DNA from: an uncultured virus (IMG/VR IMGVR_UViG_3300014073_000001)
Taxonomy: Duplodnaviria; Heunggongvirae; Uroviricota; Caudoviricetes
Reading direction: 5' to 3' (one strand)
DNA length: 64,000 nucleotides
Virus record (IMG/VR): IMGVR_UViG_3300014073_000001
Shown: positions 26,966-44,749 of the stretch, one piece after another
Position numbering within the stretch: the first letter of the stretch is position 1
Layout: each line of letters opens with the position of its first letter
Position numbers and translations under genes: made by a program
Notes under the pieces: generated by a model
What the model saw: only the letters and a program-made list of their open reading frames with translations
Databases searched by the model: none
What the model was told of the DNA's origin: nothing

Positions 26966-29900
26966 GCTGTTGCCTCCTCTTTCTTTTTGCTGACGCTAGG
27001 AAGAAGAACTGTAATTGCGATTTCATTATTGCTTCTTACCTCACTCCTGAACATTTCAGGAGCAAGTAATTGATTCGTCTTAGCCTCTTGTGCTATCTCT
27101 GTTTGCAATTCTATGATGGCGCTTACCAATGGTTTGGCAGCTTCTTTCATGCCCTGCAGAATAAAGGAGAAGCCAGTGGAAGAGAAGGTATCTTTATCGC
27201 CTACACGTAATGACGATTTCAGCATTATGAAGGAGCCTTTTGTATCCTCGAACGCTTGATGTTGGTCCGATGCGTCAGCGTAAGGCATTTTGTTCTTTAC
27301 CCGCTTAACGATTTCACATAAGATATTTAGCGCATCATGATTTAAGAAAGGCAAATCATAAACGACAGAGTTATCTTTGCTTGTTCCTACGATTGCTTTG
27401 GTATTGACTGATTGGCCATTTATCGTCAAGGTCATCGGCTTAACCGTTTTACTGGCGTTCAAATTTTCCTGCTCATGCACGATCTGGAAGAACTTGCTGT
27501 CAATACAGGGTTTAAGTCGAGGATCTGAACTAATCAAAGTGTTGCTCTGCAGCTTCGGCTCTGCCTGCACCCGGGTCACATCAAGCATTGCATAGTAGTC
27601 GTATGATTTCCTGACTTCGCTCTTATCGTTAAGAGCAGCACGCGGAGTCAGCTGGGACGCACGATAGCTGGAGGTTATCTCTCCTTGACTGCTGGCTACG
27701 GCTTTCAAGGTTTTCGTAAACATTCTTTCATCAGAGACCGGATTGCCCTTGTCGTTAGTGAGGCCGCCATCACGACGATACTTGGCACCGATGTTCTTCA
27801 TTTCATCCGACAGTAACCATTCCTGGCATACCCCGAGGAGAGGATCGACCCATTTATTGTTGAACTTGCCTGTAGTCAGCTTAGCAAACATTCCTTTGAT
27901 TAGGCCAGTATCTCCATAGGAAGGTGATCCGTATACCAGACCTTTGTTGCCATTTATGCCGGCCGTCATAGGCAGCCCGTATCTTTTAAGCGGGAATATC
28001 TGAACTACTTGCAGATTTTTAGCCCATCTCGAAATGGATTCGGTTACGTAGTTACCAATTAGAACAGTCGTTCCAATAACAGCTGCATTAACCAGTAAAG
28101 CGGAACAGATAGCAGCTGCGCTGGCTCCGGCCACGATAGTACCGGCTGCGCCAATTGCTCTACCTGCCGGCAACAAAGCTTTGACTGCTTTTATACCAGA
28201 CTTCATTTGGGAAACTGCTCCAGTTACGCCAGCTTTATCTGCGACCAAGGCACCTTTGATCAGCCCTCTCGTCGCTTTGGAACCGATGTAATCGATCCCT
28301 TTACCAAGGGAGGCAGCCGGACCACCAAAAGCCATGGAAGCCAACCATATCGCAGAGCCGCAGACAAGGGACTGCAAGGAGAACAGGAAGTTGCCTGTCG
28401 ACTGAACGGCTAACTCATGGCGATCATCTACGGTAATGATTGCATCCGGGTAAACAGATGTTACGTAGCCAGTCATTGCAGAAAAGTTGTGCACTACCTC
28501 TTTCACCAGGCATTGACCAGTCATATTCTCGTACGAATCATTGATGAACATACGGTCATACGGTTTCACCGTCGGATCACCAAGAATGATCATATCACCC
28601 TGGTACATATCCTTCATAGAATCCTTAAGAGCGCTGGCCGCCATTCTCCAGCAGACCTTGTCATGACTGATTAATCCCCAGTCTCCACTATCGTCTGCAA
28701 ACCAGTTTGTTAAGCGACTCGTTATTGAATTAGTGATAAAGCCAACGACAGGAACGCCTTTGCCATACAGTTGGGTGTCAACAATCATGGTACGTTGATA
28801 TTCAGGATAGATTTCTGCGTCGGCCCAGAGCGGCCCAACGCGTTTTTGATTCTTAATGTTTAAACTTTCTGCTATCTCGTAAAGGCCGATTGCGCAGGTC
28901 TTCATATCCTTATCCGAAGTCGTAATATTGTTCTTCACGATATCCGTCGTCGAATTATAAATATGGTACTGCTGGTATGGCTTACGCTTCTCCAGGATTA
29001 TGCCATCCTTTTGAATGTAATCATATGCGTAGTAGTACCGTGGGTGTCCATGGAAAATCGTACTACGGAAGCCAAATGGCGCAACGGCTGCAATGAAATC
29101 GGGACTTACCGATTGACAGATATGGAGCATATCCCATATGGATTTACCGTAAACCTCGAACGAGATTTTAGGGGCCTCGTCAGTAGCGTAGCTTGCCGTT
29201 ACAGAATCATCTTCCCCCCATACAGGACGCGACATTGCCTCGTAGATATTCTGAATCGTTTCGCCGCCTCTGAAGATTTGGTTGTTGTCTGGATTCCCAA
29301 AGTGATAGACACCATATGGGCTCCTACCAAGCAAGTGCGCATATTCGGTATCTTTCATCAGGTTTTTGAGTATACCACCCTTGACCGTCAGAATTGCATT
29401 CAGGATTGTCTTCGGAGTGGCTCCATTCGTAAAAAGCCCTCGTAAGGAATCTTTGTATTGAATGGAGTGTGCCTCATCATCCTCCAGAATCGGATTCGTA
29501 AGCTCTACACCATCCCCTTGTGCAATCAGTTCTACAGCTTCACCGATTTGAACTTCTGCAATGCTTCCGTTAAAAACAACAGGCAATGTAGCAGCATTGG
29601 CGCCGTAGCCTAAACGAATGTGAATCCGAGTACCGGCATGCAGGCGAATTTGATCAACTGGAGCGTCGTTCTGTCTTTTAGCTTCTTCTCTCATTTTGTA
29701 CACACGTGGGTTAAAGATGGAGTCGACTACATCGCTCCAGTTGGCGTTATAATTCGCGTTAGCATCTTCATCGTCTGAAGTGAAAGTTTTATACATATTG
29801 CTCATTACGATCCGCGCTGTATCGGCCGCAATCTTGCGTGATTTCGTGATCTGGATCTCGGCGATAGAAGACGTGTTATAGAAATTATCATGGAGCTTCC

Positions 29901-32900
29901 AGATTTCATTTTCTCGTCCTTCGTCAATGAATAGCATATAGAATGCCGGAAATGCTCTCAGCATACGCCCACGTGCATCGTGAACCGTCATATCATGGAA
30001 GCTATGCTGAATGTATTGGCGAGGATCTTCAGCCGCTTTTAGATACATTTTTTCATTATTATCTTGAATAAATTCAGTGGCTGGGTTTACAGGACTCACA
30101 CCTACTGCACTGAAATTCTTTATCCGTTTTAGGCCTACCAGAGCCAGCATCATCTTGCGGAGCGCTAAGCTTGCACCATCGCTCGGATCAATGCTATTGT
30201 CCGGCATCGCCACTCCCTGCAAGTATCCATTCAGTCCTTTGTAATCCCGCTTCCTGATCCGGTCTTTGATCTTGCTATCACCGGATGTTAATGCCATCGT
30301 CACGGCCGCAAAGAATTTACCGGAGTCAAGCGCATGACTATTCTTCAGGAAGAAGTTGACATGCTTTTCCATGGTACTCTTCGTATTGGACGTTACGTGC
30401 TGATTTATCTTCTCAATCGTGTCGAGCTCATTCTTAGCAGCGACCCGGAGAATGTCGGTCGTGATAGTAGGAATTGCGCTTGTATCGATTAGCTGCTTGA
30501 GCCAATACAGCGTCAGCCGAAAGAATGCTACGGCAGCGTACTTAGTGTTGTAAATGCAGCCTTTCTTGTAGTCTCTGATATCCTCTAGTGTAGTCTCTGC
30601 TCTGCGGAAATAGGGGTCCAAGAGATAACGGCGAGTATTGACCGAGTTAGAATATTCGATAAACATATCCTTTGGGCTCTCACCAGTAATTTTGATAAGC
30701 TCCTCTTTCGTATATTGCTTAATCCGGAATAAACTGAACTCTACAGCATTGTCAACGGCATCATCGACATTAGTTGTAATGTCCTTTCCGCCCTTATCTT
30801 GCGCCCCGCCCAGACGGACGCCGATGAAGTTCGCGTCAGGCTTCCAGGAATTATCAATGCTCTTGTTGGCGAATTCCTTTTTCGCCGTAGCAGAACAAGC
30901 TGCTGCATATACAATCTCTGATACAATATCCTGAAATGTACCCGTGTTTTCAATGTTAAGATAGTACATGATCTCACAAATCTTATCGTCAACAAGATAT
31001 CTTTTGATAGTCGATGTTACATCCAGCTTCGCATCATAGTCAGGGCCACGATAGAATGGGCCGAGCTGCTCATTGATCTGAGTACCATTGAGGTACTTTT
31101 CAATAAGAGATGAAGCCTCGCGCGCCTTTGACGTGCTATCATAGGTCCATTGGCCTTCCGGCGGCTTTGTTCCAGTTACTGCTTTTGGATCTACATCCTT
31201 AATTGCATCCTGCGCTTTCTTCCAGTTCTTATACGCATCCAGCTCCAGCTGGTAATTCCTTTCAAGAAACAGACACTTGATATCTTGGCAAATGTTCCAA
31301 GATTCTTGGGTATCAGAGCCATTCAGAACATTGAGCAAGTTATTGTTTTTAGCTTTTGCGTTGTCAGGGAATTGGTTCTCTGCTAATTGTTTGGCTTTGG
31401 CCTCATTCATTGCCCGGACTGCATTTCTTTGACTCTTGGCCGACTCATTCATTTTATAGACACCGACGCCAGTGCCAGCTTCCGCCTTAGTCGTCATTTC
31501 ACCTCCGGCCTTGTCTGTCCAGGTAATATCATCAAAGTTGTTTTCGATGGACGTAAGAACCGACTCGCGAAGCAGCTGTGATGTTAAGATGTGTGGATAG
31601 ATGAAGTAGAAATCCGGATCAGGGTATACCCTGTTGTCTTGGAATTTATATCGGATGAACTGGAATCCGTCATCTTTAAGCTCTTGGATCGTCGGCAATT
31701 CAAGGTCTGGATAAATCTCTGCTTGCGCGAGTTGATCCTGTAGCTCAAAGTAAGATAGGGTATTGGTTTGCGTACTGGCCTCTCCGCCTTGCTTGCTTGT
31801 ATTGGCCTCGATACGTTTCAATGCTTCCCGGTCACGCAGCGTGCGGTCAACAGAAATCATGGTCATATTGATTTGATACAGTCCCGGCATACCAGGTGAG
31901 GTATCTACCGTAACACTCTCAATCAATACCTCATTGATGCCGAAAAATGCTGTTAATTCGCTTTCCAGCTTCAGTGGCCAGCAAGGTAGCACCAGACGAT
32001 ATTCTCTCGCATAATAAGCGGACAACTTCGGCAATGCATTCAGCATGGCCGCCGTCTTTTTGCTGGTGGTTTGAATCTGGATGTTAAGCGTAGAGTCTTG
32101 GCCGCCCATGTATTGTGGCGCATACCCATCCATGCTCGTTACACCGATCTTGGCAAAGTTATTGCCAAAAGATATTTCCATGCTAGTAACCCTGGCGTTA
32201 TCGAGATCATAAGGATCGAATGTAATGCTGTTCAGCTTGTCTACATCGATCGCTTGCTTACGAGCAATATTCTCAGAATTCGGATCTGATTTCGCATTGT
32301 TGAGGTCGTTACAATAGCTAAGGAATTTCATATCAGGATGCCTGCCATCCAAATAAAATCTCGTACTGTCACTGCTAACATAGTAAGTTAATTCTCCAGA
32401 AGCCACAGCTTCTAGGTTCATAGCTACCGGAATAAACAGCTTGCGATCCTTGAAAAATTGGTCAACTGATTCTTTGATTTTCAAGGAGGCATCTCGACGC
32501 ATATTAGAAATCATCTCGTCATTTGTAAGGTAATCGAGTTGTGTTTCGATTACAATGCCGATAGAGACCTTTGCTTTTTTGGCAGTGGATTTGTCGTCTT
32601 CTACTTCCTCCTCTACATACTTAAGACCAATATTATTGATGATAATTTTGCCTGCCTCTGCATTGGTTGAGTTCATGTATTGACGCATCCGATGCATGAG
32701 ATCATTCACTTTTTTGTTGAGCTCCGTGGCATCCATCGGCTCATATTTATATAGGCTCTTGTCGGTTATTCTGAGCGGCAGCATATTGGTATTGGTGATA
32801 TCGCCTTGAGCAGTAGATACACTAGGAGACAGAAGCCATGACTTTATGCCGACTGTCGTGCCAGTTGAAAATGTATTGAGCACTGCCAACGGTGCAGTGA

Positions 32901-35058
32901 ACGCCGGATCGCTTGCCATCGCCTGAATCTTCTTATAGATGATTGCAAGATCTGCTCCTGCTTGCTTCTCGGCTTTGGTAAGCACGATCGTAGCATCCGT
33001 TTTTCCCATTGCCTCAATCTTTGTCTGCAGCATCTGTTTTAAATAAGTCTCGTTTGCAATGTAGAATTTTACCTTGGGGTCTTTAAACTGCATCGGCAAT
33101 AAAGCCGTCTTGTTACCAATGGTGGACTCGATGTATTCTTTGGAGTTAAAAGCTACTTTCTTTGCTGCAAGCTTTTGCCCTTTCTGGATTGCACGCTGAT
33201 AATAATAGCGCATAGTCTCAAAATTAATGCAGCCAGCAAAGTAATTTCGATACTCACTTTCGTCAGTTTCCTGGATAGGAACCTCAGGCATGTATACACG
33301 ATAATTAAACTCCTGCAGGGTTAATGTTACTTGCAAAAGCTTTGGATATCCAGGCACCGTGCTAACTCTTAAATCCACTAAAGAGACTGCCTCAACATTG
33401 AGAACACTATTGATATAGTCATTATCGATCGGCAAGAACGGAGTAAATTTGAATTGCGATATCAAGGACCGCAACCCATTCATGTAATAGGTGACTGGCT
33501 TACCGTTAGGAGTGGTTGAGTTGAGCTCGAATCCGTTAATGCCTCTCTCATCGTTAAAGTAAAGCGACAACTGGAGAATCCTTTCAGACTTCTCGGCAGA
33601 TTTCGCCATAGTGCCTTTTGCACGAAGTACCGGCATCCTTTCTGCTGTTGTTTGGGTAATACATCTGATAGATGTAGGAGGAACAAACAGAGCAGTGTCA
33701 CCAATAAGTACAGTCCATTCTTTAAGCGCATCAAAAGACATATTGGAGAATAGTTTCGCTTGCGTTTTACGCCTGTCATCGAATGATTTATCGGCACTCC
33801 ATACTGCGTCAGCATACAGCTTCTCATCAAATTGATAAGAAGAAATTCCAAAGGCATCAGAAAGACCCCCGTCCCGGCTGACTAAAGTCGGCTTATCATG
33901 GAAGTTCTTATTGATAATGATTTTGTCATAGTTAGCTATTAAATACTTATTCAGGTTCAACCATTGACCGTCTATCTTTAAATAGATAGCACCGAGGAAT
34001 CGCCCATACAGCTCTTGTGCCAGCAAATTAAAGCCAGCTAAACGATATTGGTTCGGATCCATAATGCTGTTGGCAAACTGCTTAAAAGTATTAACGATGT
34101 CGCTTTTATATATGTCGCCACCAAACCGGGCAGGATATTGAGTAGCATTCCGCGCCAGGACGTTACCGTCAAGCATAAGATATAGTTCATTGCCTGCCTT
34201 ATTAATCAAATCATATACGGCCTTTTGAGCTGCAAAGCCCTGACTTAGCAGCTCAGCCTTGCTATTATCTTTACTGAGTACAAGGAGATCTCCGCCATAG
34301 GCTTTGTATTCAGCCCATGTAGAGTCGCCTAGTCGAATAAGTTTCACGGGATCTGTGTCTAGGCGGTCTGCCCCCTCCTTAACTAATACACATAGATAAT
34401 CTTCATTGCCTTTTACCTCGCTGTATTTCATTTCTTTTGTGGTGAACTTGCTAAGGTCGACATTGCGCTCAATCGACCAGTGCGGTATCTCTGGAGCATC
34501 AATGCCCACAAATCGAATCAGGAAATCATCAGTAGCAGCCGGAACTGATTGGTCAGCGGCGATTTTAGCTATGGATTTCCTCTGCTCGGCAGCGTAAGAA
34601 ATACCCTGCTTGAGATGATCGATAACTCTCTCATCGTCGCCATAGTCAATGATATCGCTAATCCTGACATTGATCGTATCGCCATCAACTAAGCCAGTAT
34701 CAAGATCTTCTTGAGTAAATGCCGTTTTAGCCTTAAAGAAATATACACCCTGGTCCGGATAGTATCCAAGGGTTGTTACGGCTGGAGTCTCCATATAGAA
34801 CGCAGCCTTTTTAGCGTCCCCAGCCGGGGTACCACGTAACTGTGCGTCAATTAATTGAAGATAGGTATCGTCAACTTCACCGATATAGTAATCACCCATG
34901 GATGGTGTTTTAAACTTATCCTCAGTTATCACGAAGCGGCTTTCGTCGAGTTGTTTTGCCGCTTCATCAGCTATGGCCTCACCTTCAGCTGACTTCTGCG
35001 CTTTTTGGGCTTCTTTTTGAGCCGCTAAATCTATGTATGGATCGCTTTCGTATGACAT
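26962..35058 (-). CDS. Giant baseplate hub-like protein with N-terminal staphylococcal-nuclease(SNase)-like domain (~2700 aa)
   Basis: ATG 35058 follows AAGGGGG (track start 35103). SNase motifs VDGDTI, IRFVGIDAPE, YGRFLG. Hub-like RIHIRLGYG..VVFNGSIAEV..LIAQGDG and GDPTVKPYD. Hydrophobic helices near the C-terminus. Confidence 0.65.
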   Translation of the reverse strand: MSYESDPYIDLAAQKEAQKAQKSAEGEAIADEAAKQLDESRFVITEDKFKTPSMGDYYIGEVDDTYLQLIDAQLRGTPAGDAKKAAFYMETPAVTTLGYYPDQGVYFFKAKTAFTQEDLDTGLVDGDTINVRISDIIDYGDDERVIDHLKQGISYAAEQRKSIAKIAADQSVPAATDDFLIRFVGIDAPEIPHWSIERNVDLSKFTTKEMKYSEVKGNEDYLCVLVKEGADRLDTDPVKLIRLGDSTWAEYKAYGGDLLVLSKDNSKAELLSQGFAAQKAVYDLINKAGNELYLMLDGNVLARNATQYPARFGGDIYKSDIVNTFKQFANSIMDPNQYRLAGFNLLAQELYGRFLGAIYLKIDGQWLNLNKYLIANYDKIIINKNFHDKPTLVSRDGGLSDAFGISSYQFDEKLYADAVWSADKSFDDRRKTQAKLFSNMSFDALKEWTVLIGDTALFVPPTSIRCITQTTAERMPVLRAKGTMAKSAEKSERILQLSLYFNDERGINGFELNSTTPNGKPVTYYMNGLRSLISQFKFTPFLPIDNDYINSVLNVEAVSLVDLRVSTVPGYPKLLQVTLTLQEFNYRVYMPEVPIQETDESEYRNYFAGCINFETMRYYYQRAIQKGQKLAAKKVAFNSKEYIESTIGNKTALLPMQFKDPKVKFYIANETYLKQMLQTKIEAMGKTDATIVLTKAEKQAGADLAIIYKKIQAMASDPAFTAPLAVLNTFSTGTTVGIKSWLLSPSVSTAQGDITNTNMLPLRITDKSLYKYEPMDATELNKKVNDLMHRMRQYMNSTNAEAGKIIINNIGLKYVEEEVEDDKSTAKKAKVSIGIVIETQLDYLTNDEMISNMRRDASLKIKESVDQFFKDRKLFIPVAMNLEAVASGELTYYVSSDSTRFYLDGRHPDMKFLSYCNDLNNAKSDPNSENIARKQAIDVDKLNSITFDPYDLDNARVTSMEISFGNNFAKIGVTSMDGYAPQYMGGQDSTLNIQIQTTSKKTAAMLNALPKLSAYYAREYRLVLPCWPLKLESELTAFFGINEVLIESVTVDTSPGMPGLYQINMTMISVDRTLRDREALKRIEANTSKQGGEASTQTNTLSYFELQDQLAQAEIYPDLELPTIQELKDDGFQFIRYKFQDNRVYPDPDFYFIYPHILTSQLLRESVLTSIENNFDDITWTDKAGGEMTTKAEAGTGVGVYKMNESAKSQRNAVRAMNEAKAKQLAENQFPDNAKAKNNNLLNVLNGSDTQESWNICQDIKCLFLERNYQLELDAYKNWKKAQDAIKDVDPKAVTGTKPPEGQWTYDSTSKAREASSLIEKYLNGTQINEQLGPFYRGPDYDAKLDVTSTIKRYLVDDKICEIMYYLNIENTGTFQDIVSEIVYAAACSATAKKEFANKSIDNSWKPDANFIGVRLGGAQDKGGKDITTNVDDAVDNAVEFSLFRIKQYTKEELIKITGESPKDMFIEYSNSVNTRRYLLDPYFRRAETTLEDIRDYKKGCIYNTKYAAVAFFRLTLYWLKQLIDTSAIPTITTDILRVAAKNELDTIEKINQHVTSNTKSTMEKHVNFFLKNSHALDSGKFFAAVTMALTSGDSKIKDRIRKRDYKGLNGYLQGVAMPDNSIDPSDGASLALRKMMLALVGLKRIKNFSAVGVSPVNPATEFIQDNNEKMYLKAAEDPRQYIQHSFHDMTVHDARGRMLRAFPAFYMLFIDEGRENEIWKLHDNFYNTSSIAEIQITKSRKIAADTARIVMSNMYKTFTSDDEDANANYNANWSDVVDSIFNPRVYKMREEAKRQNDAPVDQIRLHAGTRIHIRLGYGANAATLPVVFNGSIAEVQIGEAVELIAQGDGVELTNPILEDDEAHSIQYKDSLRGLFTNGATPKTILNAILTVKGGILKNLMKDTEYAHLLGRSPYGVYHFGNPDNNQIFRGGETIQNIYEAMSRPVWGEDDSVTASYATDEAPKISFEVYGKSIWDMLHICQSVSPDFIAAVAPFGFRSTIFHGHPRYYYAYDYIQKDGIILEKRKPYQQYHIYNSTTDIVKNNITTSDKDMKTCAIGLYEIAESLNIKNQKRVGPLWADAEIYPEYQRTMIVDTQLYGKGVPVVGFITNSITSRLTNWFADDSGDWGLISHDKVCWRMAASALKDSMKDMYQGDMIILGDPTVKPYDRMFINDSYENMTGQCLVKEVVHNFSAMTGYVTSVYPDAIITVDDRHELAVQSTGNFLFSLQSLVCGSAIWLASMAFGGPAASLGKGIDYIGSKATRGLIKGALVADKAGVTGAVSQMKSGIKAVKALLPAGRAIGAAGTIVAGASAAAICSALLVNAAVIGTTVLIGNYVTESISRWAKNLQVVQIFPLKRYGLPMTAGINGNKGLVYGSPSYGDTGLIKGMFAKLTTGKFNNKWVDPLLGVCQEWLLSDEMKNIGAKYRRDGGLTNDKGNPVSDERMFTKTLKAVASSQGEITSSYRASQLTPRAALNDKSEVRKSYDYYAMLDVTRVQAEPKLQSNTLISSDPRLKPCIDSKFFQIVHEQENLNASKTVKPMTLTINGQSVNTKAIVGTSKDNSVVYDLPFLNHDALNILCEIVKRVKNKMPYADASDQHQAFEDTKGSFIMLKSSLRVGDKDTFSSTGFSFILQGMKEAAKPLVSAIIELQTEIAQEAKTNQLLAPEMFRSEVRSNNEIAITVLLPSVSKKKEEATA

Positions 35059-35122
35059 GCGCAAATCCCCCTTATATAAAAGCCTCATATGAGAGCCCGT
35101 CATTGCATTGTTTCTATTTGTA

Positions 35123-35387: not shown

Positions 35388-35433
35388 CAAAAGAGAAGAA
35401 GCAAGATACGCATATCTTGCTTCTTCTCTTTTG
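35388..35433. terminator. Strong (likely bidirectional) terminator hairpin downstream of toxin-immunity pair
   Basis: Perfect 21-bp stem CAAAAGAGAAGAAGCAAGATA-cgca-TATCTTGCTTCTTCTCTTTTG. Confidence 0.75.
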
Positions 35434-35507
35434 CATTCTGCTTGTTATTTACTTATTTACATATAGGACTTAACATTAACTAGCTAATGTCCATCTAAAC
35501 GACTACT

Positions 35508-35846
35508 TTATATTGCTTCCCAGTCTTTTATTCCTAAATTGGGATTAATCATCTTATCAGTATCATGTTCTTTAATAAAAAAGTAAACTAGATCGACAAA
35601 AATTCGTAACGCTTTTTTTTCTACAACAAAATACCAATTTTCCATACTATTTCCTTCGAGGATGTATTCAATACCTCTTTCAGAAACTTCCTCATCAAAT
35701 CCCCACATTTCCATTGGCATAGTAATATTATATCCCTTATAATTCAACCAAATATTTACGAAATTTCCATTTTCTTTGATTTTTAACTGGCAAACATCGC
35801 TTGTATACCACAACACATTTTTTTCTTCTTCAATTTCCCAAATCAT
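35508..35846 (-). CDS. Putative immunity protein (112 aa)
   Basis: ATG 35846 follows GGAGGA and overlaps the toxin stop by 17 nt. Small, acidic/aromatic protein encoded in AT-rich DNA. Confidence 0.55.
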   Translation of the reverse strand: MIWEIEEEKNVLWYTSDVCQLKIKENGNFVNIWLNYKGYNITMPMEMWGFDEEVSERGIEYILEGNSMENWYFVVEKKALRIFVDLVYFFIKEHDTDKMINPNLGIKDWEAI

Positions 35847-36822
35847 CTTTAATTCCTCCATGATATCTATCATACAAACCAACGCAAGCGTCCATTCCTG
35901 GATTACTGCTCACTGATGCTTCAATAACACCTTCCCATGAACCGTATTTTTTAAACATCGATTCTGGTGTTGGCCCATCTGCATTTTGATAAGTGTCTAA
36001 ATTACTTCTCCTTGCCATTTCATATCCTTCCATATCTCCCCTTGCAAGATAGCTATTTAATCTATTTGCATTACGCTCGTTAACCATTTTTTGTGCTATC
36101 CCTTCAGTTGAGTAACCTTGACTATAAAGATTGTCAAGCATTTGTTGATTACTCTCATGATATGCCAGTCTAGTTTGTCTTGCTATTTCTACTTGATTGG
36201 GATCATTCCAATCTATCTTATTTGCAAATTTTCCTATGCGTGTTGATTTTGGATTTGGTGAATAACCATATACAGCATCGGGATTCTCTACTATATCCTT
36301 TGCGGCTTTCGGGTTATTCATCGGATTATTCTTATAAATAAATTCAGGTCTTCTCGACTCCTCAACACCAGCAATTTTCCTACTGTCATCTGCTTCCCCA
36401 ACACCTTCGGCAAATTTACCTGCAATTCCTCTACCATATTTAGCAGGAACAACATCCAGTACATGTTCTTTTCTCGTCAGTTTCTGCATTCCATCGTCTA
36501 TTTCTTTAGCACTCGTTATTAATACAGGCTCTTTCAGATTTTGTTGTATCGTTCCTGCAATTTGATTATTCCTTAAAGCTATTGGTTCGCCGCTAATATA
36601 AGGTATTGCTCTGCCAAAGTTAGCATGCCCCTTAATTGGAGATGAAGCAATCATTGGTTTAAACTCATTAAAATCCACTACTTTACCTGGAATGTTAGTT
36701 GATCTTTTACATAAAATAACGCTTGCTCTTTTTGTTAAATCGTCGACCCTATTAATCGTTTTATTAGATTCGAGCAATGTTCCCTTAAGGCTATTTTTAA
36801 ATTTTATAAATTTAGATAACAT
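35830..36822 (-). CDS. Putative polymorphic-toxin-type effector (330 aa)
   Basis: Bipartite. An EGVGEA-type linker precedes a C-terminal domain (AVYGYSP...ERNANRLNSY...KKYGSWEGVIE..NPGMDACVGLY) resembling Firmicute polymorphic toxin tips. A small overlapping gene follows. Confidence 0.55.
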   Translation of the reverse strand: MLSKFIKFKNSLKGTLLESNKTINRVDDLTKRASVILCKRSTNIPGKVVDFNEFKPMIASSPIKGHANFGRAIPYISGEPIALRNNQIAGTIQQNLKEPVLITSAKEIDDGMQKLTRKEHVLDVVPAKYGRGIAGKFAEGVGEADDSRKIAGVEESRRPEFIYKNNPMNNPKAAKDIVENPDAVYGYSPNPKSTRIGKFANKIDWNDPNQVEIARQTRLAYHESNQQMLDNLYSQGYSTEGIAQKMVNERNANRLNSYLARGDMEGYEMARRSNLDTYQNADGPTPESMFKKYGSWEGVIEASVSSNPGMDACVGLYDRYHGGIKDDLGN

Positions 36823-36858
36823 TGATTTGCGCTCCTCGATATAAGCTTGTCATATACT

Positions 36859-36864
36859 TATTAC
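36859..36864 (-). promoter_or_regulatory. GTAATA putative late-promoter element of the toxin gene
   Basis: About 37 nt upstream of ATG 36822. Confidence 0.45.
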
Positions 36865-36945
36865 CGAGTACCTACGCTTTATTTAGTGTGTTGATGCCAG
36901 CACTCAATTCTTACTGCATTATTCCATTTATACATTTTGTGAAAC

Positions 36946-36984
36946 AGTCCAAATATGAATGTCATTGGACATTATATTTGGACT
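36946..36984. terminator. Stem-loop between the 2545-aa gene and the toxin cassette
   Basis: AGTCCAAATAT(g)AATGTC-attg-GACATT-ATATTTGGACT inverted repeat. Confidence 0.55.
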
Positions 36985-37111
36985 ATTAAAGTACTGGGGA
37001 TGGTAATACGTATCTATAGCTTGTTTGAGCATTGATATTTAAATCAAAGACGATGATATTGCCTGGAAAAACCACGTAATCATAGATTTAAAGCACCTTG
37101 CAGATGCTCGT

Positions 37112-40100
37112 TTATTGGAAAGCTGACATTAGCATCTTCGATATTTGCGCCGTATTTGCTTCGCCGAAGTTGTGAATATTCATCGCAACATTTATATTCG
37201 TGTTATTGAATCCACTAGATAATGCTTGCTGTATTGCACTAGACGCATGTCCCTGCCCTTGACTGGTCTGAGCATTAATATTGATAACATATCCTTGCTT
37301 CGGACCGACTCTGACATTAGGTAGATTTGAATCAGATAGCACAGGTATTCGATATTCGCCTTCTGCATCATCTTGTGCCTGCGTCTCTGCAGGCCTAGAA
37401 GGATGACCGCCGACGAATCCAGCGACCATTACTGCTCCTGCTAAGCCCAGGGCGCCAAATGCTAGTGACTTTCCGGTAAGACCTATAGAACCAATCTTAG
37501 ATCTTATAGTATTTATTAGCTGCTCCGAGTCACTAAGAACTTTATGAGAAGCATTTCTCCTTACGATGGCTTGTGTTGCAGCACTATCACCGGCCAAGGA
37601 AGGCTGGAGCTGCTTTTGAACAATTTGGGGATCCATCCTTGACTCACTCATTGCATCATAAGCAATCGTGAGCTCCCTGCTCATAGAGTCAACTACTTCA
37701 TTGGTACGGATTCGTTTCTTGTCGACTTCAACACCTTTAGTGAGTATTCCCTGAGTAAAATATTCCTTTAGATCCGGACTAAGTTGTATTCTTTCTCCAA
37801 AGTCCGAGAAAATTCTTGCCGCTTCTTGATAGTCCATATCTCTAAGCAAATTATTTAGTTTAGTTTGCTCGTTTATGTTCAATTGTTTGGTAAGAAACTC
37901 GTACATGCGCTGAACATTTGCCGCGCCATGATAACCCACCATTTCGCCGAGAGAAGCTTTCTGCATAGCACTTCTCTCATCTTGAGTAATAGCAGCGTGT
38001 TCATAATTACTGGTAATGTCGATAAGCTGCCTATCCTGGTACAGATAACGGGTTGTTTCGCATGCCGCCGCTTTTCTGCCCTTAGCAACGTCATCAATCT
38101 GCCCTTGCCAGTTTGAAATACCGTAATGTAAAGATTCAAAATGATTTTCTCTATCGGTTTCATCTAGCGTATTAATATATTTATCTAAATTTTCAGAGAT
38201 TCGCTCAATGTCTTCTGGCTGTGCTCGGTATAACTTGTTATTGTCAGGCGCATTATAGTGTATCAATGCGCTTGCATCTTTGAATATTTCCGTTTCTTCA
38301 GTAAGTTGTGCATCTATGCCTTTCTTATACTCGAACTGTGCAATGGTACTCAATGCCATATTATCGGTAATGACATCGGATAGGTACACTGCAGATACGC
38401 TTACAGACTTTTTATAGCCGGCCGGTTCATGAACATTTAGTGATAACGTACCTTTGGATTTGCTATGCTCAAAGACCTCTTCTTGCGTAAGACCAAAGCC
38501 ACTGAAGTATTCATCGTTATAGATCGTATTCATGAAGCTTCGTCCCACGAATGTTGCGTCGTATTCGGCGCCTTTCCTGGCGGCCTCTAGAACCAAGTTC
38601 ATCCCGTCAAACTCAAGTTGCCGATGGTAAGCACTGGTCTCATTCCCGAAACACTCAATGCCGCTCGCCTTAAATCTTCCCGAATCAAGAAGTCTTACAG
38701 CCCCTAGAGCAGCTGCCCCTTGCTGTTTTACCGTTAGGGACTCAGATACAGCTATTTTAGCTCCGGCCACAGTATTGCGCATGCTATTAAGGATCTTATC
38801 TTTTTCTGCTGCAATTCCAGACGACGAGTAATCTGCTTGCGGTTGTTCCAGCTGGGAAGCATTTTTTTGAAAAGAAATTCTTGCTTCCTCTTGTTTTTGA
38901 GGATCAATAAACTCCCGTGAGGGGGATAGTAAGGGCAAATAATGCTCGTCATTTTTTGCATACTGATTATTTCCTAACTGTTCCATATGCAGATCGATTA
39001 ACAGTTTCTTCCCATAGATCGCATCGGCAATGACATCGTTACCGCCGAAGCTGGTATCAATTCGGCTTAATCTTCTAACTTCGAAGCCTGCCTTTCCTAT
39101 CATATCCGCTAGCCTGTAACCACTGTTGCCAGTATTCCAGTTGCTGGCCAGGACTTCGGTCATTACCGAGTACCTGTCTTCGATTGTATGCTGGCTAACG
39201 TAGCCTACACCTTGTTTGTTCATTGCGCCAAGCATGGTCTTACCAACTAGGCCCATGCCTTTCAGTTTGTCTTTTATGACCTGATTTATTTCGCCATCTT
39301 GCATTAGTAAGACATCGCCCGGCTGAACGAACATAGCGCAACGGCTCTGATCTCCTATGCTTTTTGTAATAGCCTGTTTTTGATGTTCCTTTTTAATAGC
39401 GTCATAGTCGTCAAGCACATGAGCAAAACGAATCTTAGGCACTTCTGGTACAACGGCTTCCCTTACTCGTGCTAAGCTTTCCTCGTTGTAGCGCTCCCAC
39501 TCCATCATTTGAGAGTTACGATCCGTGAACTTAACTCCTTTTGTCACTTTTTTCAGACCTTGGGTCGCATTAGCCGCTACCGTAGCCTCATGATCATAGA
39601 AGTCCATAGCTACAAGCTCAATTTGCGACAAATCAGCTTCAATACCGTTAACTTCCCGGGTGATTTTAAGATTATGTTCAGGATTGTTAATAACTGCTTG
39701 CCGTTTATCCAAATAGATATTGCCGTTTGGTGCAACTAGCTGACTGTTCTTTACTTCGAATCCAGGGATAGCATCTTTTAGGATATTCTGCTCTTTGTTA
39801 GCATCACTACTGTAATTGTAAAGCAAATTGTCAGCAACGCGCTTAATTACACCAGGCGAATCTTGATGCTTTAATTCTGCTTCAGAGTTATTGCTAATCG
39901 CTTGGAATGTCTTGCCTGGGTTGAGAAAATCGCTGTCGCCGATGGCACCCCTTAGTGCTACTCCGAGCGACTCAATATACTCTTTGTCGGGTACTTCGTG
40001 AAGGAAGCTGCCCAAATTAAGAGTTTTTAAGATTTGTGTCGTCGGACCATCTCCAGAGGTTCCCAAGCTACCCACCAGGAAGCGCGCCATGTTTTTCTCG

Positions 40101-43100
40101 CTACTGCCCTCTGCTATCTTGCGGAGCGGATTAGCATCGAATGCTTTGATATAGTAAGCTAATTCGTAATTATTGTTCAAGATACGATACGCTTCTTGCT
40201 CCATGTCAGCCGCACTCATGATTTGGTCTTTATGGCGGGTTAGTGTTTGTATAACGCTTTTTTCGTCGACCATTAAGCCGCTGCGCTTTGACAAGATACC
40301 AAAGCGGAACATACCGGCTTCTTGGGCATATGTCTCCTGGACCGTATCGTTATAGCCACCTACGTTGGTGAGAAACTCGCCTTGGTGTACGAATACCCCA
40401 TTGCGATATTCAAACGTGATCTTGCCGTCTGTCCCAATTAGGAGCTGAGGTGCTAGATTACGTTTGGCTTTAAGATCGTCAATAGTATTGAGATTATGCT
40501 CATTTATCTTGTAGAGGGCTATCTTTTGTGTAGTGGCTCGTATATGGAAGATGCTATCGAACATTTCCAGTGCAGCGACAGCAGCGCCGTCATCAAGGTA
40601 GATGTTGGTAAGTATCTCTTTGACATACTGATTTTTGATGTCTGCAGAGTTACTAAGCTTACGCAGGTCTCCAGTTCGCATGGATAATCGGCTTACACGC
40701 ACAGCACTTTCCATGACATACTCCATACCGCTCAACTTTCTCCTAGCCTCAACTACCTCAGTAGCCATGTATAAGTTGCGACTGCTAGAGACATCTTTCA
40801 ACGCTTTGCTGGTAATGGTTGCTTTGGCATCATCTGCATTAAAACGAAGATCCCTAGAAACATGTTGATGGATACCACACTTAGCAGCGCCATAAACATC
40901 ACATAAGTGTGACTTGTTAAATAGTGTACCAACAAGGCCAGTTATCTCTTTGTTGTCCCAGGAGAACTTATTGATCATGTCTTTGAGGCTACTGTCTCCG
41001 GAGTCTCTTACAATACCCTGCAGTATATTGCGAGCATTAAAAGTAATTAATGACCTAGCTCTGTAGGTTAAACGCTCTGGATCTAGTTTTTCACCATTTA
41101 AGAGCACTATCATTTCTTTATGCTGCTCGAATTTTATGCCTTTAAATACGCCTTGCCCATACAGATCCTGTAGCTTGGGAACTACATCGTACATTGAGAA
41201 GGCAAAGTCATATCGAGAATCTTGCATATCGCCTTTCATTACAGAGGAACTTTCGCGTAACGATTTGGCCAAGCAGCCAATAATACGATTGATTTGTCCG
41301 GCAAGATCTCCTTCCTTCATGCCACGCTCAAATGCCGTATCCATCCAATACAAGTCATCATGTGCTTTACCAATCAAAGATTGGAACTTAAGGTTTTTGT
41401 CCCATTTGGAAGTATATAAGCCCACGGGGGAAGATACTTTCATATTACCAATTTCTGTATAGAATCGGCCGTCTTGGAATAAATCGCGTGGAAGATTGCC
41501 CAAGCGAGTTTGTATGCCATCAGCTATTAAGTTGAATTCTTTTACATCCTCATTATAAAGGAGCTCTGCCCCCGTTTTGTGAATACCCGCCATGAAGTCC
41601 TTTATGAAGCTGATAGTATCATTCATTCGGATATTCCGCATGTTCATCAGATCCTTAGCTTGGTCTTCGGTATAGCCAAGTTTAAAAAGATCATTCATTT
41701 CCACGTTATCGAACAGTAAATTCTTGACAATATTCTCCGCTTCACTATGGATGTTGTTCTTATTCAGGAATCTTGCGTTCGGCAATGTCTTATCGATTTC
41801 ACGCAAAATATTTTGTATCGCTTCTTTGCCAAAGCCCAGTTTAGCCATGTTTGAAACGGTCGTTACGTTTTGGCGTTTGCCGATAAGAATGCGCCCAGCT
41901 GCTTCACCATACTGGCCATTTGTATTTTTACGCACTGTGCGCAAACTATCAAGTAGATGCTGTGTGAGTGTCTCAGAGGTGTGAGTTTCTAGCTCTTCAG
42001 CTGAAACTACGCGATCGCTGCTGATGATTCCCTTATTGTTCAAGTGGCTCATAAAGTGATGAATTTCTTTTATCTTTTCGCTTTCATCTGTTACCCCTGT
42101 AAATCCACGCTTCTGAATCAGACGATCGGCAAGAGTGAGGTTGGATGTCTTTAAATTTATCGAAAAAATATCGCTATTGTCATCATAAATACTAGGCACT
42201 TTGATGCCAGGGCGGTGTCCATAACCATCCATATTTACTTCAAACTTATTACGATCTATCGCACGAACCCTTAGGGTTTCAGTATTAGTTGATTCAATGC
42301 CGGTTGCAGTATTCTTCGCCATATATCCTTGTAAGCCGGTGAAGTATTGTTTGAAATAGAAATCTTGGAGCTTCCTGTCTGTGCCTCCACGTTTTTCGGC
42401 AGCATCAATAACAACACTCATAATATCGCGAATGCTATTGGCGTAGTTCTCAGATTTAAGAGCTGCATCGACAATTTCGCGATATACGCGCCATTCGCCA
42501 GAGCCCTCCCTCTGCCGCCAACCAAAATACTCTTGGTATGTTTTGAGCATATTGACCCCTGGCAGACTTAATTCGCGCTTAGTAACGCCGTGCGCAACAT
42601 CTAACGACTGATTACGAATAGCTTCATGGAATTCTTTACGAAGAGCTGTACGCACATCTACCGATGCATTCTCATCAGCATTGTATTTTACATATTTTTC
42701 CACGTCGTTAAGAAATTCTAATAATCCCTTCTGCTTATTCATCACAAATCCACGTCTTGCCCTGGTTGTAGATTCATTCTGAAGATGGAATTTGCTTTCG
42801 CTAAGTTGGTTTACAACGGTGAAACCTACATTGGTTTCTTTGCCATCCGGCCCGATCTCAATTTCCGAGAGATAATCAATAGCGTCTTTTGTCGTATGCC
42901 AGCAACCGTCCTGTTTATATCTGGTTAGGATCAGCTGTTGGTTAATGCGGCATTCAATATCTTCTCTTGTGCCAACTAACGTAACCGACGATAGAGCTTC
43001 AAAGGATTCGTCACCAGCTTCAGGATTGAAGGTTGCTGTCACGATACGTTCGGCAACCATGCCAGGGTGAGTATCTGCAATTACATTACCCCACTGGTCG

Positions 43101-44749
43101 GTCATCTCATGTTCATAAATGCTATCAAGAGTATATGATACACCTCTTTGAAAACCGGACTGGTTGAATAGTTCTTTGTGAACTACTCCATTATTAGAGA
43201 TGCCGTACCCACCGAATGTGCGGATATCGCCTGTGAATACATCATCAACGAATGACATCATTCCACCGAGATTGCTGTCCATACCCATACTCTCATGAGC
43301 ATAGAAGAACATCTTTCTCCCACCCATTAAGGCCCGCGGTTCTGAAACTGCCTTGTGGAAAATATAGTCCGCGCCATCAGGATTGAATAAACCGGACTGT
43401 ACATACATAGATGCGTTTACAGCAATGTCTATCTTGCCGATATGAGCAGCATAGTTATTATAAACGGCTGGATCGCAGTAGCACGTCAATTCTTCTTCTT
43501 TCATGGCTTTTCGGACTGCTTCAGTATATATGTCTGACCAGCGATCGCTACGAGTAGCACGCAAACAAGCAAGGGTGTCCATGTGACGATTCTGCCAATT
43601 AAAGCCTAATCCCAAATCGTGCATTACACTTTTTGCGTTAGCGGACAACATATTCCCTTGGGTAAAGCGCTTCATCATTTCTAGATTGAAGGAACCACTA
43701 TTGTGGCCTAAAGCTGTTATATCTTCTGTTTGCCTAACATGCAGACCTTCAATAAACCGTTTTTCCCAAGCAAGCATTTGCTTACCTTGATACGTTACGA
43801 TGCTCTTCTTCTGCTGATTGTAGATATCGAGGTATCTGTCAGCACCACGGCGCATATCCCGAGTATTCATGGCTTTAATATCTGCATCGCTAGCATAAGA
43901 AGTAAATTTAAATAAGCCAGACTGTCCTGGCATTTCTTGATAATTGGTATTTAGATGACCAGTCTTTGCAAGCCGTTTCAGAATACCCATATCACGGTCT
44001 GACATTTCGGCTCCGCTTTCATACCGATTAATGACATTCGTGAACTCTTTATGCATCTTATAATCTTGGCCGATAACCGAGGAATAGAAATCGCCTATCG
44101 TTCCTGTTTTTGAATCGGCCATACCAAAGGAGAACGCGGTAACAGCATCGAGAACTTGTTGACCAGTATGATTAATGCCGCCCATGGTCTCAATGTCGTA
44201 AGCCAAGAACTTGCCTTTATCCCAAATGTTCTGATTCGCTGCCACAAGCTGGTTATATGGAATCGAAACGTCCTTTTGAGTATATTGATATAACATAGTA
44301 CCATTCAGATTAATGGTATGCTGAATAAGCGATGTGCCTGTCTGCTTTGCTACAAGGCCATTTCGCGCTACATTGCGGACATACTGATAGAAATCTACAG
44401 AGATCTTACCATATGTCTCAGCGATGCTCTCAGGGGCTACATATCTACTCGCTACTTCTTTCTCGGTAGCATTCAACAAACAGATGCTATTTTGCGTACT
44501 AGCTACGACATCACGCATGTCGTTAAAACGGGCCAATGCGATCGAATTCTGATGATCGTTAATTTTTTTCTTAAAATCGCCTACATTTTCTTTGATCCAG
44601 GCGTCTACATCCTTTTCCCCCAGATTTCGTTCTCTCATCAGAACTTGTCGCACATATTTCTTTACGAATTCGAAGTAGTTAGAAAAACAGGTATCTATAT
44701 CATTTTTTTGTATTGCTTTATTAAAATGAGTCCTTGTTTCGGCTGCCAT
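37112..44749 (-). CDS. Giant virion-associated protein (2545 aa) with degenerate DEDD exonuclease-like N-terminal domain and C-terminal hydrophobic helix
   Basis: ExoI-like LAYDIETMG, ExoII-like GHNSGSFN, DTL and AH...D motifs. C-terminal TM-like SLAFGALGLAGAVMVAGFVGG. Confidence 0.6.
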   Translation of the reverse strand: MAAETRTHFNKAIQKNDIDTCFSNYFEFVKKYVRQVLMRERNLGEKDVDAWIKENVGDFKKKINDHQNSIALARFNDMRDVVASTQNSICLLNATEKEVASRYVAPESIAETYGKISVDFYQYVRNVARNGLVAKQTGTSLIQHTINLNGTMLYQYTQKDVSIPYNQLVAANQNIWDKGKFLAYDIETMGGINHTGQQVLDAVTAFSFGMADSKTGTIGDFYSSVIGQDYKMHKEFTNVINRYESGAEMSDRDMGILKRLAKTGHLNTNYQEMPGQSGLFKFTSYASDADIKAMNTRDMRRGADRYLDIYNQQKKSIVTYQGKQMLAWEKRFIEGLHVRQTEDITALGHNSGSFNLEMMKRFTQGNMLSANAKSVMHDLGLGFNWQNRHMDTLACLRATRSDRWSDIYTEAVRKAMKEEELTCYCDPAVYNNYAAHIGKIDIAVNASMYVQSGLFNPDGADYIFHKAVSEPRALMGGRKMFFYAHESMGMDSNLGGMMSFVDDVFTGDIRTFGGYGISNNGVVHKELFNQSGFQRGVSYTLDSIYEHEMTDQWGNVIADTHPGMVAERIVTATFNPEAGDESFEALSSVTLVGTREDIECRINQQLILTRYKQDGCWHTTKDAIDYLSEIEIGPDGKETNVGFTVVNQLSESKFHLQNESTTRARRGFVMNKQKGLLEFLNDVEKYVKYNADENASVDVRTALRKEFHEAIRNQSLDVAHGVTKRELSLPGVNMLKTYQEYFGWRQREGSGEWRVYREIVDAALKSENYANSIRDIMSVVIDAAEKRGGTDRKLQDFYFKQYFTGLQGYMAKNTATGIESTNTETLRVRAIDRNKFEVNMDGYGHRPGIKVPSIYDDNSDIFSINLKTSNLTLADRLIQKRGFTGVTDESEKIKEIHHFMSHLNNKGIISSDRVVSAEELETHTSETLTQHLLDSLRTVRKNTNGQYGEAAGRILIGKRQNVTTVSNMAKLGFGKEAIQNILREIDKTLPNARFLNKNNIHSEAENIVKNLLFDNVEMNDLFKLGYTEDQAKDLMNMRNIRMNDTISFIKDFMAGIHKTGAELLYNEDVKEFNLIADGIQTRLGNLPRDLFQDGRFYTEIGNMKVSSPVGLYTSKWDKNLKFQSLIGKAHDDLYWMDTAFERGMKEGDLAGQINRIIGCLAKSLRESSSVMKGDMQDSRYDFAFSMYDVVPKLQDLYGQGVFKGIKFEQHKEMIVLLNGEKLDPERLTYRARSLITFNARNILQGIVRDSGDSSLKDMINKFSWDNKEITGLVGTLFNKSHLCDVYGAAKCGIHQHVSRDLRFNADDAKATITSKALKDVSSSRNLYMATEVVEARRKLSGMEYVMESAVRVSRLSMRTGDLRKLSNSADIKNQYVKEILTNIYLDDGAAVAALEMFDSIFHIRATTQKIALYKINEHNLNTIDDLKAKRNLAPQLLIGTDGKITFEYRNGVFVHQGEFLTNVGGYNDTVQETYAQEAGMFRFGILSKRSGLMVDEKSVIQTLTRHKDQIMSAADMEQEAYRILNNNYELAYYIKAFDANPLRKIAEGSSEKNMARFLVGSLGTSGDGPTTQILKTLNLGSFLHEVPDKEYIESLGVALRGAIGDSDFLNPGKTFQAISNNSEAELKHQDSPGVIKRVADNLLYNYSSDANKEQNILKDAIPGFEVKNSQLVAPNGNIYLDKRQAVINNPEHNLKITREVNGIEADLSQIELVAMDFYDHEATVAANATQGLKKVTKGVKFTDRNSQMMEWERYNEESLARVREAVVPEVPKIRFAHVLDDYDAIKKEHQKQAITKSIGDQSRCAMFVQPGDVLLMQDGEINQVIKDKLKGMGLVGKTMLGAMNKQGVGYVSQHTIEDRYSVMTEVLASNWNTGNSGYRLADMIGKAGFEVRRLSRIDTSFGGNDVIADAIYGKKLLIDLHMEQLGNNQYAKNDEHYLPLLSPSREFIDPQKQEEARISFQKNASQLEQPQADYSSSGIAAEKDKILNSMRNTVAGAKIAVSESLTVKQQGAAALGAVRLLDSGRFKASGIECFGNETSAYHRQLEFDGMNLVLEAARKGAEYDATFVGRSFMNTIYNDEYFSGFGLTQEEVFEHSKSKGTLSLNVHEPAGYKKSVSVSAVYLSDVITDNMALSTIAQFEYKKGIDAQLTEETEIFKDASALIHYNAPDNNKLYRAQPEDIERISENLDKYINTLDETDRENHFESLHYGISNWQGQIDDVAKGRKAAACETTRYLYQDRQLIDITSNYEHAAITQDERSAMQKASLGEMVGYHGAANVQRMYEFLTKQLNINEQTKLNNLLRDMDYQEAARIFSDFGERIQLSPDLKEYFTQGILTKGVEVDKKRIRTNEVVDSMSRELTIAYDAMSESRMDPQIVQKQLQPSLAGDSAATQAIVRRNASHKVLSDSEQLINTIRSKIGSIGLTGKSLAFGALGLAGAVMVAGFVGGHPSRPAETQAQDDAEGEYRIPVLSDSNLPNVRVGPKQGYVININAQTSQGQGHASSAIQQALSSGFNNTNINVAMNIHNFGEANTAQISKMLMSAFQ

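Follow-up and report, generated by a model that had tools for sequence, protein, structure and literature searches.

What role might two small, AT-rich genes play between two giant genes of a jumbo myophage? The question is raised by a 64,000-nucleotide (nt) stretch of DNA from an uncultured virus (IMG/VR record IMGVR_UViG_3300014073_000001; "the window" always means this whole stretch), in which an open reading frame (ORF) of 330 amino acids (aa) and an overlapping one of 112 aa lie between a 2545-aa gene in the tape-measure position and the gene of a 2713-aa baseplate hub. A preliminary description of the window had read the two as a toxin-immunity-like pair inserted among tail genes, and the coordinates that it gave, the overlap of the two genes (17 nt between the start of the small gene and the stop of the larger one) and their AT-richness all held: the G+C content is 36.2% in the 330-aa gene and 29.5% in the small gene, while the window as a whole has 42.6% and the giant genes on either side have 42.8-44.9%. 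We find it probable that the pair is a phage-borne polymorphic toxin-immunity module with a phage-specific trafficking part.

A bipartite 330-aa protein

The pair and its parts are laid out as follows.

35830..36822, minus strand: gene of the 330-aa protein, a predicted chimeric toxin made of leader, junction module and tip (ORF list and translation)
36832-36837, minus strand: GAGGAG ribosome-binding site of the 330-aa gene
36697..36822, minus strand: basic N-terminal leader, residues 1-42 (MLSK..LKGTLLESNK.INRVD.L), within a region (residues 1-133) 47% identical to protein P0105
36403..36696, minus strand: module of ~98 aa, residues 43-140, duplicated in P0105
36403-36492, minus strand: junction motif GMQKLTRKEHVLDVVPAKYGRGIAGKFAEG, residues 111-140, which closes the ~98-aa module and is common to proteins P0107 and P0120, where it precedes other tips
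36349..36402, minus strand: linker from junction to tip, residues 141-158 (VGEADDSRKIAGVEESRR), after which homology to bacterial tips begins
35854..36348, minus strand: putative C-terminal toxin-tip domain, residues 159-323, mostly helical (database relatives and AlphaFold2 model)
35508..35846, minus strand: gene of the 112-aa protein, predicted to be the cognate immunity gene, with GGAGG at 35855-35859
35496..36347, minus strand: cassette of tip and small gene, 853 nt (blastn)

The 330-aa protein matches no Pfam family at E <= 1 and no PHROG below E 0.25, has neither a MuF, LXG, WXG or HINT domain (Pfam) nor a signal peptide, and like its 112-aa partner, which matches nothing in Pfam or PHROGs either, finds no match among PADLOC (E <= 0.1) or NCBIfam (E <= 0.01) models; the ESM Atlas model of the whole protein is poor, with a predicted local distance difference test score (pLDDT) of 0.46. 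Among 5.8 billion clustered proteins, 89 relatives were retrieved, every one of which aligns solely within residues ~83-330 and mostly within 159-323. Homology to bacterial cassettes starts at residues 159-161 in both BLASTP and blastn, right behind KFAEGVGEADDSRKIAGVEES, and ends before a short extension (residues 324-330) that has no counterpart in the bacterial homologs. The protein is thus bipartite, as had been proposed from its sequence, with relatives on record for the C-terminal part that do not extend into the leader.

The tip domain and its bacterial relatives

A further search among longer proteins added nine relatives of the C-terminal domain, and 97 of the 98 hits were kept for a tree after one with fewer than 140 aligned residues had been removed. 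The domain ends in GLYDxYHGG and occurs in two architectures. In type A (44 of 97 homologs), it forms the extreme C-terminus of proteins that begin with an LXG domain of the type VII secretion system (T7SS), a pre-toxin HINT (PT-HINT) domain or unnamed N-termini; LXG-borne tips are found in P0111 (named "T7SS effector LXG polymorphic toxin" by NCBI) and P0112 and PT-HINT-borne tips in ten proteins, so that the LXG-type hits anticipated in the preliminary description did turn up, on C-termini of polymorphic toxins. In type B (53 of 97), the domain comes directly after a signal peptide and is in turn succeeded by LysM, SLH, an LPXTG or membrane anchor, a GH3 glycosidase or TNT. The type B proteins (P0018-P0090 and P0113; loci L005-L008) make up a large signal-peptide protein family of gut and rumen Clostridia.

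The tip of the window falls into a clade of 31 rows that consists of itself and 30 type A proteins (SH-aLRT 99), with a Clostridium frigoriphilum protein as its neighboring sister. Because this quick maximum-likelihood tree of the 97 hits and the window has a midpoint root only, the direction of transfer is something that we infer. An AlphaFold2 model of the tip built from a 56-row alignment is mostly helical and confident (pLDDT 92.8). Foldseek found nothing in the PDB for this model at E <= 0.001, an exhaustive VIA-align comparison gave a best Z of 4.5 with no convincing match, and profile and sequence searches of PDB sequences retrieved only LysM matches from fused partners, or nothing. The neighbors of the tip in the ESM Atlas are unnamed Bacillota clusters only. 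Invariant Tyr, Asp, Arg and Asn residues in the tip alignment, namely Y163, D176, R218, R250, N251, R254, D311 and D318, suggest, as an impression only, that the domain could be an enzyme.

A small downstream gene that tracks the tip

The mechanical ORF list gives the small gene 124 aa from a TTG codon; we adopted the ATG at 35846, which yields 112 aa, because GGAGG lies 8 nt before it and because 110-aa homologs begin with MIW. The protein has twelve relatives of 108-120 aa, eleven of them 63-79% identical and one 39%.

All 12 bacterial type A loci inspected carry a small ORF of 86-132 aa directly downstream of the tip, starting within a few dozen bases of its end or overlapping it. Homologs of the 112-aa gene had been predicted to stand beside such toxins, and three of the 12 ORFs, immediately downstream of the tip, indeed share 67-75% identity with the 112-aa protein (C. 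frigoriphilum, L001; a Tissierellia metagenome-assembled genome, L002; Bacillus sp. 491mf, L004), while two more are distant homologs (L034, 33%, E 4e-25; L033, 27%, E 4e-7). Another six (L003, L025, L028, L030, L031 and L035) belong to a different family of ~95 aa with the motif EMEYWDMPT, which goes with tips 48-55% identical to that of the window, some of them in genomes of the B. cereus group (L025, L028), and which has no significant BLAST similarity to the MIW..NYKGYNI family of the 112-aa protein. At the twelfth locus (L022), the ORF follows a nearly full-length LXG toxin of Bacillus albus with a tip 40% identical to ours; it has no BLAST match to the 112-aa protein and resembles the L033 ORF by eye only. 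Across these loci, the type of partner ORF tracks the clade of the tip, and since such co-variation is typical of toxin-immunity pairs, the small gene appears immunity-like. A tblastn search with the 112-aa protein found it absent from the other loci in that search, among them the four type B loci. At positions 5908-6673 of L004, an orphan ORF of 143 aa has an N-terminus with HExxH fused to the final ~116 tip residues and is followed by the immunity homolog; this orphan cassette lies within an array of small ORFs that resembles a poly-immunity locus.

The 112-aa protein is acidic (isoelectric point 4.5) and has neither a signal peptide nor a hydrophobic segment; given its acidity and the lack of such a segment, it should be cytoplasmic. 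Its AlphaFold2 model is of the alpha+beta kind (pLDDT 92.8). Resemblances to YbjN and to chaperones of the type III secretion system (T3SS) were set aside as not decisive (Foldseek E 0.017-0.2, template modeling score 0.41-0.51), the alpha+beta arrangement being a common one, and VIA returned weak look-alikes only (best Z 5.7). One homolog, P0094, carries the UniRef label "Immunity protein 53", yet none of the 13 family members matches PF15580 at E <= 10. The table of Zhang et al. 2012 (PMC3482391) describes Imm53 as alpha+beta with W, WE, PGW and W motifs; the 112-aa protein is alpha+beta and starts with MIWE. We predict that the 112-aa gene is the cognate cytoplasmic immunity gene, a prediction that is probable jointly with the interpretation of the whole module.

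Cassette boundaries and transfer

The tip and the small gene form one block at the DNA level. The window is 84.4% nucleotide-identical to the C. frigoriphilum locus L001 over 853 nt, from codon 159 of the putative toxin gene to 12 nt past the stop of the immunity gene, and the corresponding blastn identities are 79.8% for L002 (817 nt) and 77.7% for L004 (627 nt). Because a single blastn block covers both genes, the comparison indicates that tip and immunity gene moved as a unit, and recently, between the phage lineage and Clostridia-like bacteria. The edges of the cassette are sharp in these alignments, and the left one coincides with the junction to which the preliminary description had drawn attention.

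An N-terminal part reused with other tips

Residues 1-157 retrieved four proteins in a phmmer search of 1.84 billion representatives. Two of them, P0106 and P0108, were rejected as spurious matches to repeat proteins. P0105 (370 aa, E 2e-42) has the same leader followed by a module of ~80 aa that is present twice and by the same ending, GIAG..AEG, and its C-terminus of ~140 aa is unrelated to the tip of the window; the expectation that the N-terminal 150 aa would be found fused to another tip is therefore borne out. P0107 (832 aa, E 5e-5) has only the junction in common (TVYEGMQELAKKGYVLDVVPVEYGRGIEDKVAEG). No paralog of the leader exists elsewhere in the window. As judged from these comparisons, the N-terminal 157 aa are phage-specific and reused with other tips. 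The leader itself (residues 1-42) is strongly basic, with an isoelectric point of 10.4, and hydropathy analysis shows no hydrophobic segment.

The P0105-type tip recurs in nine bacterial genome loci, three of which were inspected. There it ends a 1043-aa VgrG-like protein adjoining a DUF4280 protein (with a Phage_GPD match of E 3e-6 that lies below the Pfam cut-off), a PT-TG protein (E 2e-17) and another protein that matches DUF637 weakly, and in each of the three loci it is followed by an ORF of 141-152 aa.

A relative of P0107, the 1306-aa protein P0120, is encoded on a 45-kb IMG/VR viral contig as follows.

Contig L020, 6537-10912: gene of P0120, between a tail-fiber-like gene and an Amidase_3 gene, then an ORF of 145 aa with DUF3805

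P0107 and P0120 are 88% identical up to AEGR.E.G.G and unrelated beyond it; P0120 contains a RadC JAB domain, ends in Tox-REase-9 (E 4e-23, 82 bits vs a cut-off of 27) and has no match among GenBank phages. Across the aligned proteins, the junction reads GMQ..L......V.......Y..GI....AEG, so that this motif (GMQ..YGRGI..AEG) marks a point of tip exchange in at least two phage lineages.

One sequencing run contains contig pieces over ~36718-36890, which take in the opening ~29 codons of the leader together with ~67 nt upstream (a GTAATA hexamer among them), at a summed depth of ~100-300 and with loose ends on both sides, while the flanking phage genes in the same run have depths of 6-8; fragmentary contigs of this run also show a joint that skips 36471-37063. 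In this sample, leader and upstream unit may also occur in other contexts of higher abundance, which we offer as a lead only.

Genomic setting

The source phage is a jumbo myophage and a distant relative of Bacillus phage 0305phi8-36, as judged by PHROG and tblastn matches of window proteins, and PHROG matches identify baseplate and virion proteins as well as a capsid gene in the window. The long ORFs surrounding the pair all lie on the minus strand.

37112..44749, minus strand: 2545-aa gene in the tape-measure position, upstream neighbor of the pair (placed by position and size alone)
26962..35103, minus strand: 2713-aa baseplate-hub gene, downstream neighbor (phrog_20474, E 1.6e-196)
51762-54653: sheath gene (PHROG match)

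The 2713-aa protein is homologous to the baseplate hub ORF147 of 0305phi8-36 and to hub-like giants of four other phages (tblastn), with no match among GenBank phages for its first 400 aa. The 2545-aa gene has no sequence match among GenBank phages and is comparable in place and size to the 2537-aa tape-measure gene ORF146 of 0305phi8-36, which was itself assigned by position and tail length; passages of that report (PMC2147016) note that such genes diverge beyond recognition by BLAST.

In 0305phi8-36, KLEB27-3 and WH1, the gene in the tape-measure position directly adjoins the hub gene, 16-31 nt away, and in the fourth annotated relative compared, Moorella phage MTATph1 (L019, 8026-11356), this junction upstream of the hub gene is taken up by a transposase and three hypothetical ORFs; Edson, a fifth relative, was left out of this comparison. 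Relative to three of these four phages, the pair is by gene order an insertion, in keeping with what had been supposed about this part of the tail region, and because MTATph1 carries a transposase and small ORFs right at the junction, the lineage may have a hotspot for insertions there. The low-G+C island extends over ~35000-37200, and the pair has neither a DNA nor a protein match among GenBank phages.

A ParA-like partition gene (62361-63215, plus strand; phrog_164, E 1.5e-48) lies on the opposite strand just past the structural block and makes the lifestyle of a plasmid-prophage plausible. Two adjacent minus-strand genes directly downstream of the sheath gene (49404-50975, 523 aa; 51073-51705, 210 aa) each have a match to phrog_9206, "major head protein", over its N-terminal ~165 positions and may represent paralogous domains or a mis-named tail-tube family.

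Expression signals

36859..36864, minus strand: GTAATA hexamer 36 nt upstream of the ATG of the 330-aa gene, candidate promoter element (sequence scan)
35388..35433: perfect palindromic hairpin of 20 bp, terminator-like, ~75 nt past the stop of the small gene (terminator scan)
36947..36983: AT-rich inverted repeat with arms of 10 bp, between the gene in the tape-measure position and the 330-aa gene (read by eye, missed by the terminator scan)

The hexamer GTAATA occurs 68 times in the window vs 42 expected, and stands on the coding strand in 5 of the 12 intergenic gaps upstream of minus-strand genes (P ~0.001-0.006 vs Markov shuffles). An extended promoter consensus of 20 nt drawn from two GTAATA sites was discarded after it had matched one site only, and no sigma-70-like site was called upstream of the 330-aa gene on its strand. 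The 20-bp hairpin lies in a non-coding gap of 404 nt between the small gene and the hub gene (35104-35507). Just upstream of the hub start, a TTGACA-N17-AACAAT site overlaps a GTAATA, and the hub ATG itself has no obvious Shine-Dalgarno sequence. The hairpins and the low G+C content would fit an autonomous moron as well as wiring into the tail operon.

Proposed mechanism

Three hallmarks of polymorphic toxin systems in the sense of Zhang et al. 2012 are found at this locus and its relatives: the tip sits on different N-terminal domains, the N-terminal part (in two leader clusters) carries different tips, and a small ORF of at least two families that track tip clades follows the tip in every one of the 12 type A loci inspected. 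We therefore propose a chimera in which the N-terminal part, composed of the leader and the ~98-aa module ending in the junction, would be the trafficking part, followed by the linker and the 165-aa tip. The tip would be toxic inside cells, as suggested by the cytoplasmic nature of its partner, which would neutralize it by binding. The immunity gene is probably translationally coupled to the toxin gene and would shield the cell that hosts toxin production by the phage or prophage. A Clostridia-like polymorphic toxin locus would have been the source of the cassette, which would have entered through recombination at the junction.

The N-terminal part may further attach the toxin to the virion, most likely in the tail lumen or at the baseplate, a suggestion based on its reuse with other tips, on the junction motif that also ends large RadC-bearing phage proteins, and on the position of the gene between tape-measure and hub. 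Virion loading on its own can be advanced only tentatively, and the choice of tail lumen or baseplate draws on gene position and on analogy with MuF toxins, polyvalent proteins and the cargo of extracellular contractile injection systems (eCIS) and of type VI secretion systems (T6SS). Loaded toxin would be delivered into the attacked cell, and cells already carrying the phage would be immune. It could then arrest a newly infected cell until phage-made immunity appears, or penalize cells without the (pro)phage; passages of Jamet et al. 2017 (PMC5576092) similarly propose for MuF toxins that they act on the infected cell or favor lysogens.

The boldest version would be a true contractile-tailed DNA phage that carries an exchangeable polymorphic toxin as tail cargo by means of a short N-terminal loading module, sending toxin first and DNA second, with prophage immunity marking kin. 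We regard this version as doubtful. If true, its loading module would stand in for the leaders, PAAR/VgrG adaptors or MuF of other systems, and the phage would be a living intermediate between phages and effector delivery by eCIS or T6SS, with a new toxin fold and new immunity families.

Evidence to the contrary and alternative explanations

Several observations weigh against a toxin-immunity module with a trafficking part. The leader is present in two protein clusters only, and viral, metagenome and genome contig collections yielded no relative of leader or junction except the P0120 contig (L020/L021), which has the junction alone. The N-terminus resembles no known packaging or secretion signal in Pfam, PHROG or the ESM Atlas, where it retrieves sub-threshold viral hypothetical proteins, none of them informative; the tip model finds no match in BFVD, and its fold resembles nothing solved. 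The 53 type B homologs are not toxin tips but signal-peptide proteins with the domain near the N-terminus, and two type B loci, both inspected, have no small partner gene. Because these forms are secreted and lack the partner, the domain may act outside the cell or at the envelope, be harmless alone, or need another context. The cassette is flanked by hairpins and has its own Shine-Dalgarno sites, as in morons, and the ParA-like gene would allow an addiction role. Finally, the pair had been described as wired to the same promoter motif as the structural genes. GTAATA is present upstream of the 330-aa gene as claimed, but it is not distinctive of structural genes: eight other hexamers also occur in at least 5 of the 12 upstream gaps, the distance from GTAATA to the start codon varies from 19 to 127 nt, and the flanks of this copy differ from those of the others.

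An autonomous toxin-immunity cassette that works outside the virion is one alternative. Such a moron or addiction module could keep a plasmid-like prophage stable through post-segregational killing, shut out or abort rival phages, or let the lysogen export a weapon by a host pathway. The low-G+C island, which is bounded by hairpins and has ribosome-binding sites of its own, suits this idea, as do the hotspot suggested by the transposase and small ORFs of MTATph1 and the toxin-antitoxin addiction of P1 and N15 prophages cited in passages of Jamet et al. 2017 (PMC5576092). A plasmid-prophage state would give the immunity gene a role in resident cells, yet it also keeps this alternative alive. 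However, a 157-aa N-terminal part shared with a differently tipped protein is the hallmark of a trafficking domain and would be superfluous for addiction; the order of genes is toxin first, as in polymorphic toxins; the small protein shows no features of a DNA-binding antitoxin and the pair no PADLOC match; and export would have to do without a signal peptide, LXG or WXG domain. We thus consider a moron or addiction module unlikely.

The secreted homologs also invite an explanation in which the C-terminal domain would serve the tail as an accessory during entry or lysis, as an enzyme acting on the Gram-positive wall or a module binding it, with the small protein as its inhibitor or chaperone until assembly. 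Here, the 53 secreted forms, in which LysM, SLH, LPXTG or a GH3 glycosidase accompanies the domain, are joined by the annotation of wall-degrading domains in the hub protein of this lineage and by the faint likeness of the small protein to YbjN and T3SS-chaperone-like folds. Yet the domain of the window is nested within the tips that end LXG and PT-HINT toxins, away from the secreted forms, its partner is cytoplasmic and found with toxin-tip forms only, and no known wall-hydrolase fold matches the tip, so that we judge this explanation improbable.

It is very improbable that the pair is a mere passenger, a recently captured bacterial cassette kept by chance or decaying without a phage function, since, for all that recent transfer is implied by 84% DNA identity with a bacterial cassette and that the family of the leader is a very rare one, both ORFs remain intact and have good ribosome-binding sites, the identical 330-aa protein is on record from three contigs with a 90%-cluster variant from a fourth, and the fusion to the phage-specific leader is in frame and 47% conserved with P0105.

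Novelty and significance

The polymorphic toxin-immunity module that we favor belongs to a kind already known, that of phage-borne polymorphic toxins (MuF) and virion-delivered effectors. What is new is the N-terminal architecture with its junction motif, the location in the tail module of a jumbo myophage, and an unnamed tip and immunity families without known folds. Among the titles and abstracts retrieved on phage polymorphic toxins, tape measures with immunity proteins and virion-injected effectors, which cover the MuF papers, the polyvalent-protein paper, the survey of Zhang et al. 2012 and a paper on Mycobacterium abscessus prophages, none has this arrangement.

Phage polymorphic toxins have so far mainly been MuF fusions in the head module of temperate phages, and the locus adds a second, unrelated N-terminal architecture. 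It offers clean cassette boundaries with a recent bacterial donor (84% DNA identity), a testable junction motif common to small and very large phage proteins, and a confidently folded domain without known fold that is widespread on LXG and PT-HINT toxins and on secreted surface proteins of Clostridia from gut and rumen; it also indicates new immunity families, at least two in number. If tail loading is true, the locus also bears on how contractile injection systems acquire cargo and could provide a natural handle for loading proteins into phage particles.

Comparison with known systems

Morons and prophage toxin-antitoxin addiction modules resemble the pair as low-G+C inserts with their own hairpins between conserved structural genes. 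Type II toxin-antitoxin pairs differ from it: the trafficking-plus-toxin architecture and toxin-first order of the window are atypical for them.

Among contractile devices, cargo effectors of the eCIS known as PVC carry N-terminal loading signals. The likeness to eCIS and T6SS cargo lies in a predicted toxin gene beside tube, tape-measure and spike genes, in an N-terminal part with various toxic C-termini, and in the P0105-type tip that also occurs on a VgrG-like spike protein. Unlike these systems, the window represents a complete DNA-packaging phage, and its leader has no similarity to known signals.

The polyvalent proteins of Iyer et al. 2017 (PMC5512222) come close through the junction motif, which also ends the 1306-aa RadC-JAB protein that finishes in Tox-REase-9; passages of that paper list RadC as a polyvalent-protein domain and propose virion packaging and injection for such proteins. 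In contrast, the protein of the window is small, with a single effector domain and a predicted immunity gene, and the term "immunity protein" has no occurrence in the main text of PMC5512222.

With the T7SS LXG and PT-HINT toxins of Bacillota, as treated in passages of Zhang et al. 2012 (PMC3482391), the module shares a tip that is 40-83% identical, the same or related immunity genes and cassette exchange at a pre-toxin junction, and as a point of tip swapping the junction motif resembles the VENN, PT-TG and other pre-toxin junctions described there. However, the phage protein has no LXG (PF04740), WXG or HINT domain and no signal peptide, and it is encoded by a phage and not by a chromosomal T7SS or toxin locus.

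The closest precedent is provided by the MuF toxins, for which passages of Jamet et al. 2017 (PMC5576092) describe a phage-specific N-terminus, variable C-terminal toxins shared with bacteria, a downstream immunity gene, Firmicutes hosts and proposed delivery by the virion. Unlike them, the protein of the window has a new leader and junction in place of a MuF (SPP1 gp7-like) domain and an unnamed tip, and while MuF toxins belong to the head and packaging module, its gene stands among the tail genes of a jumbo myophage, between tape-measure and hub.

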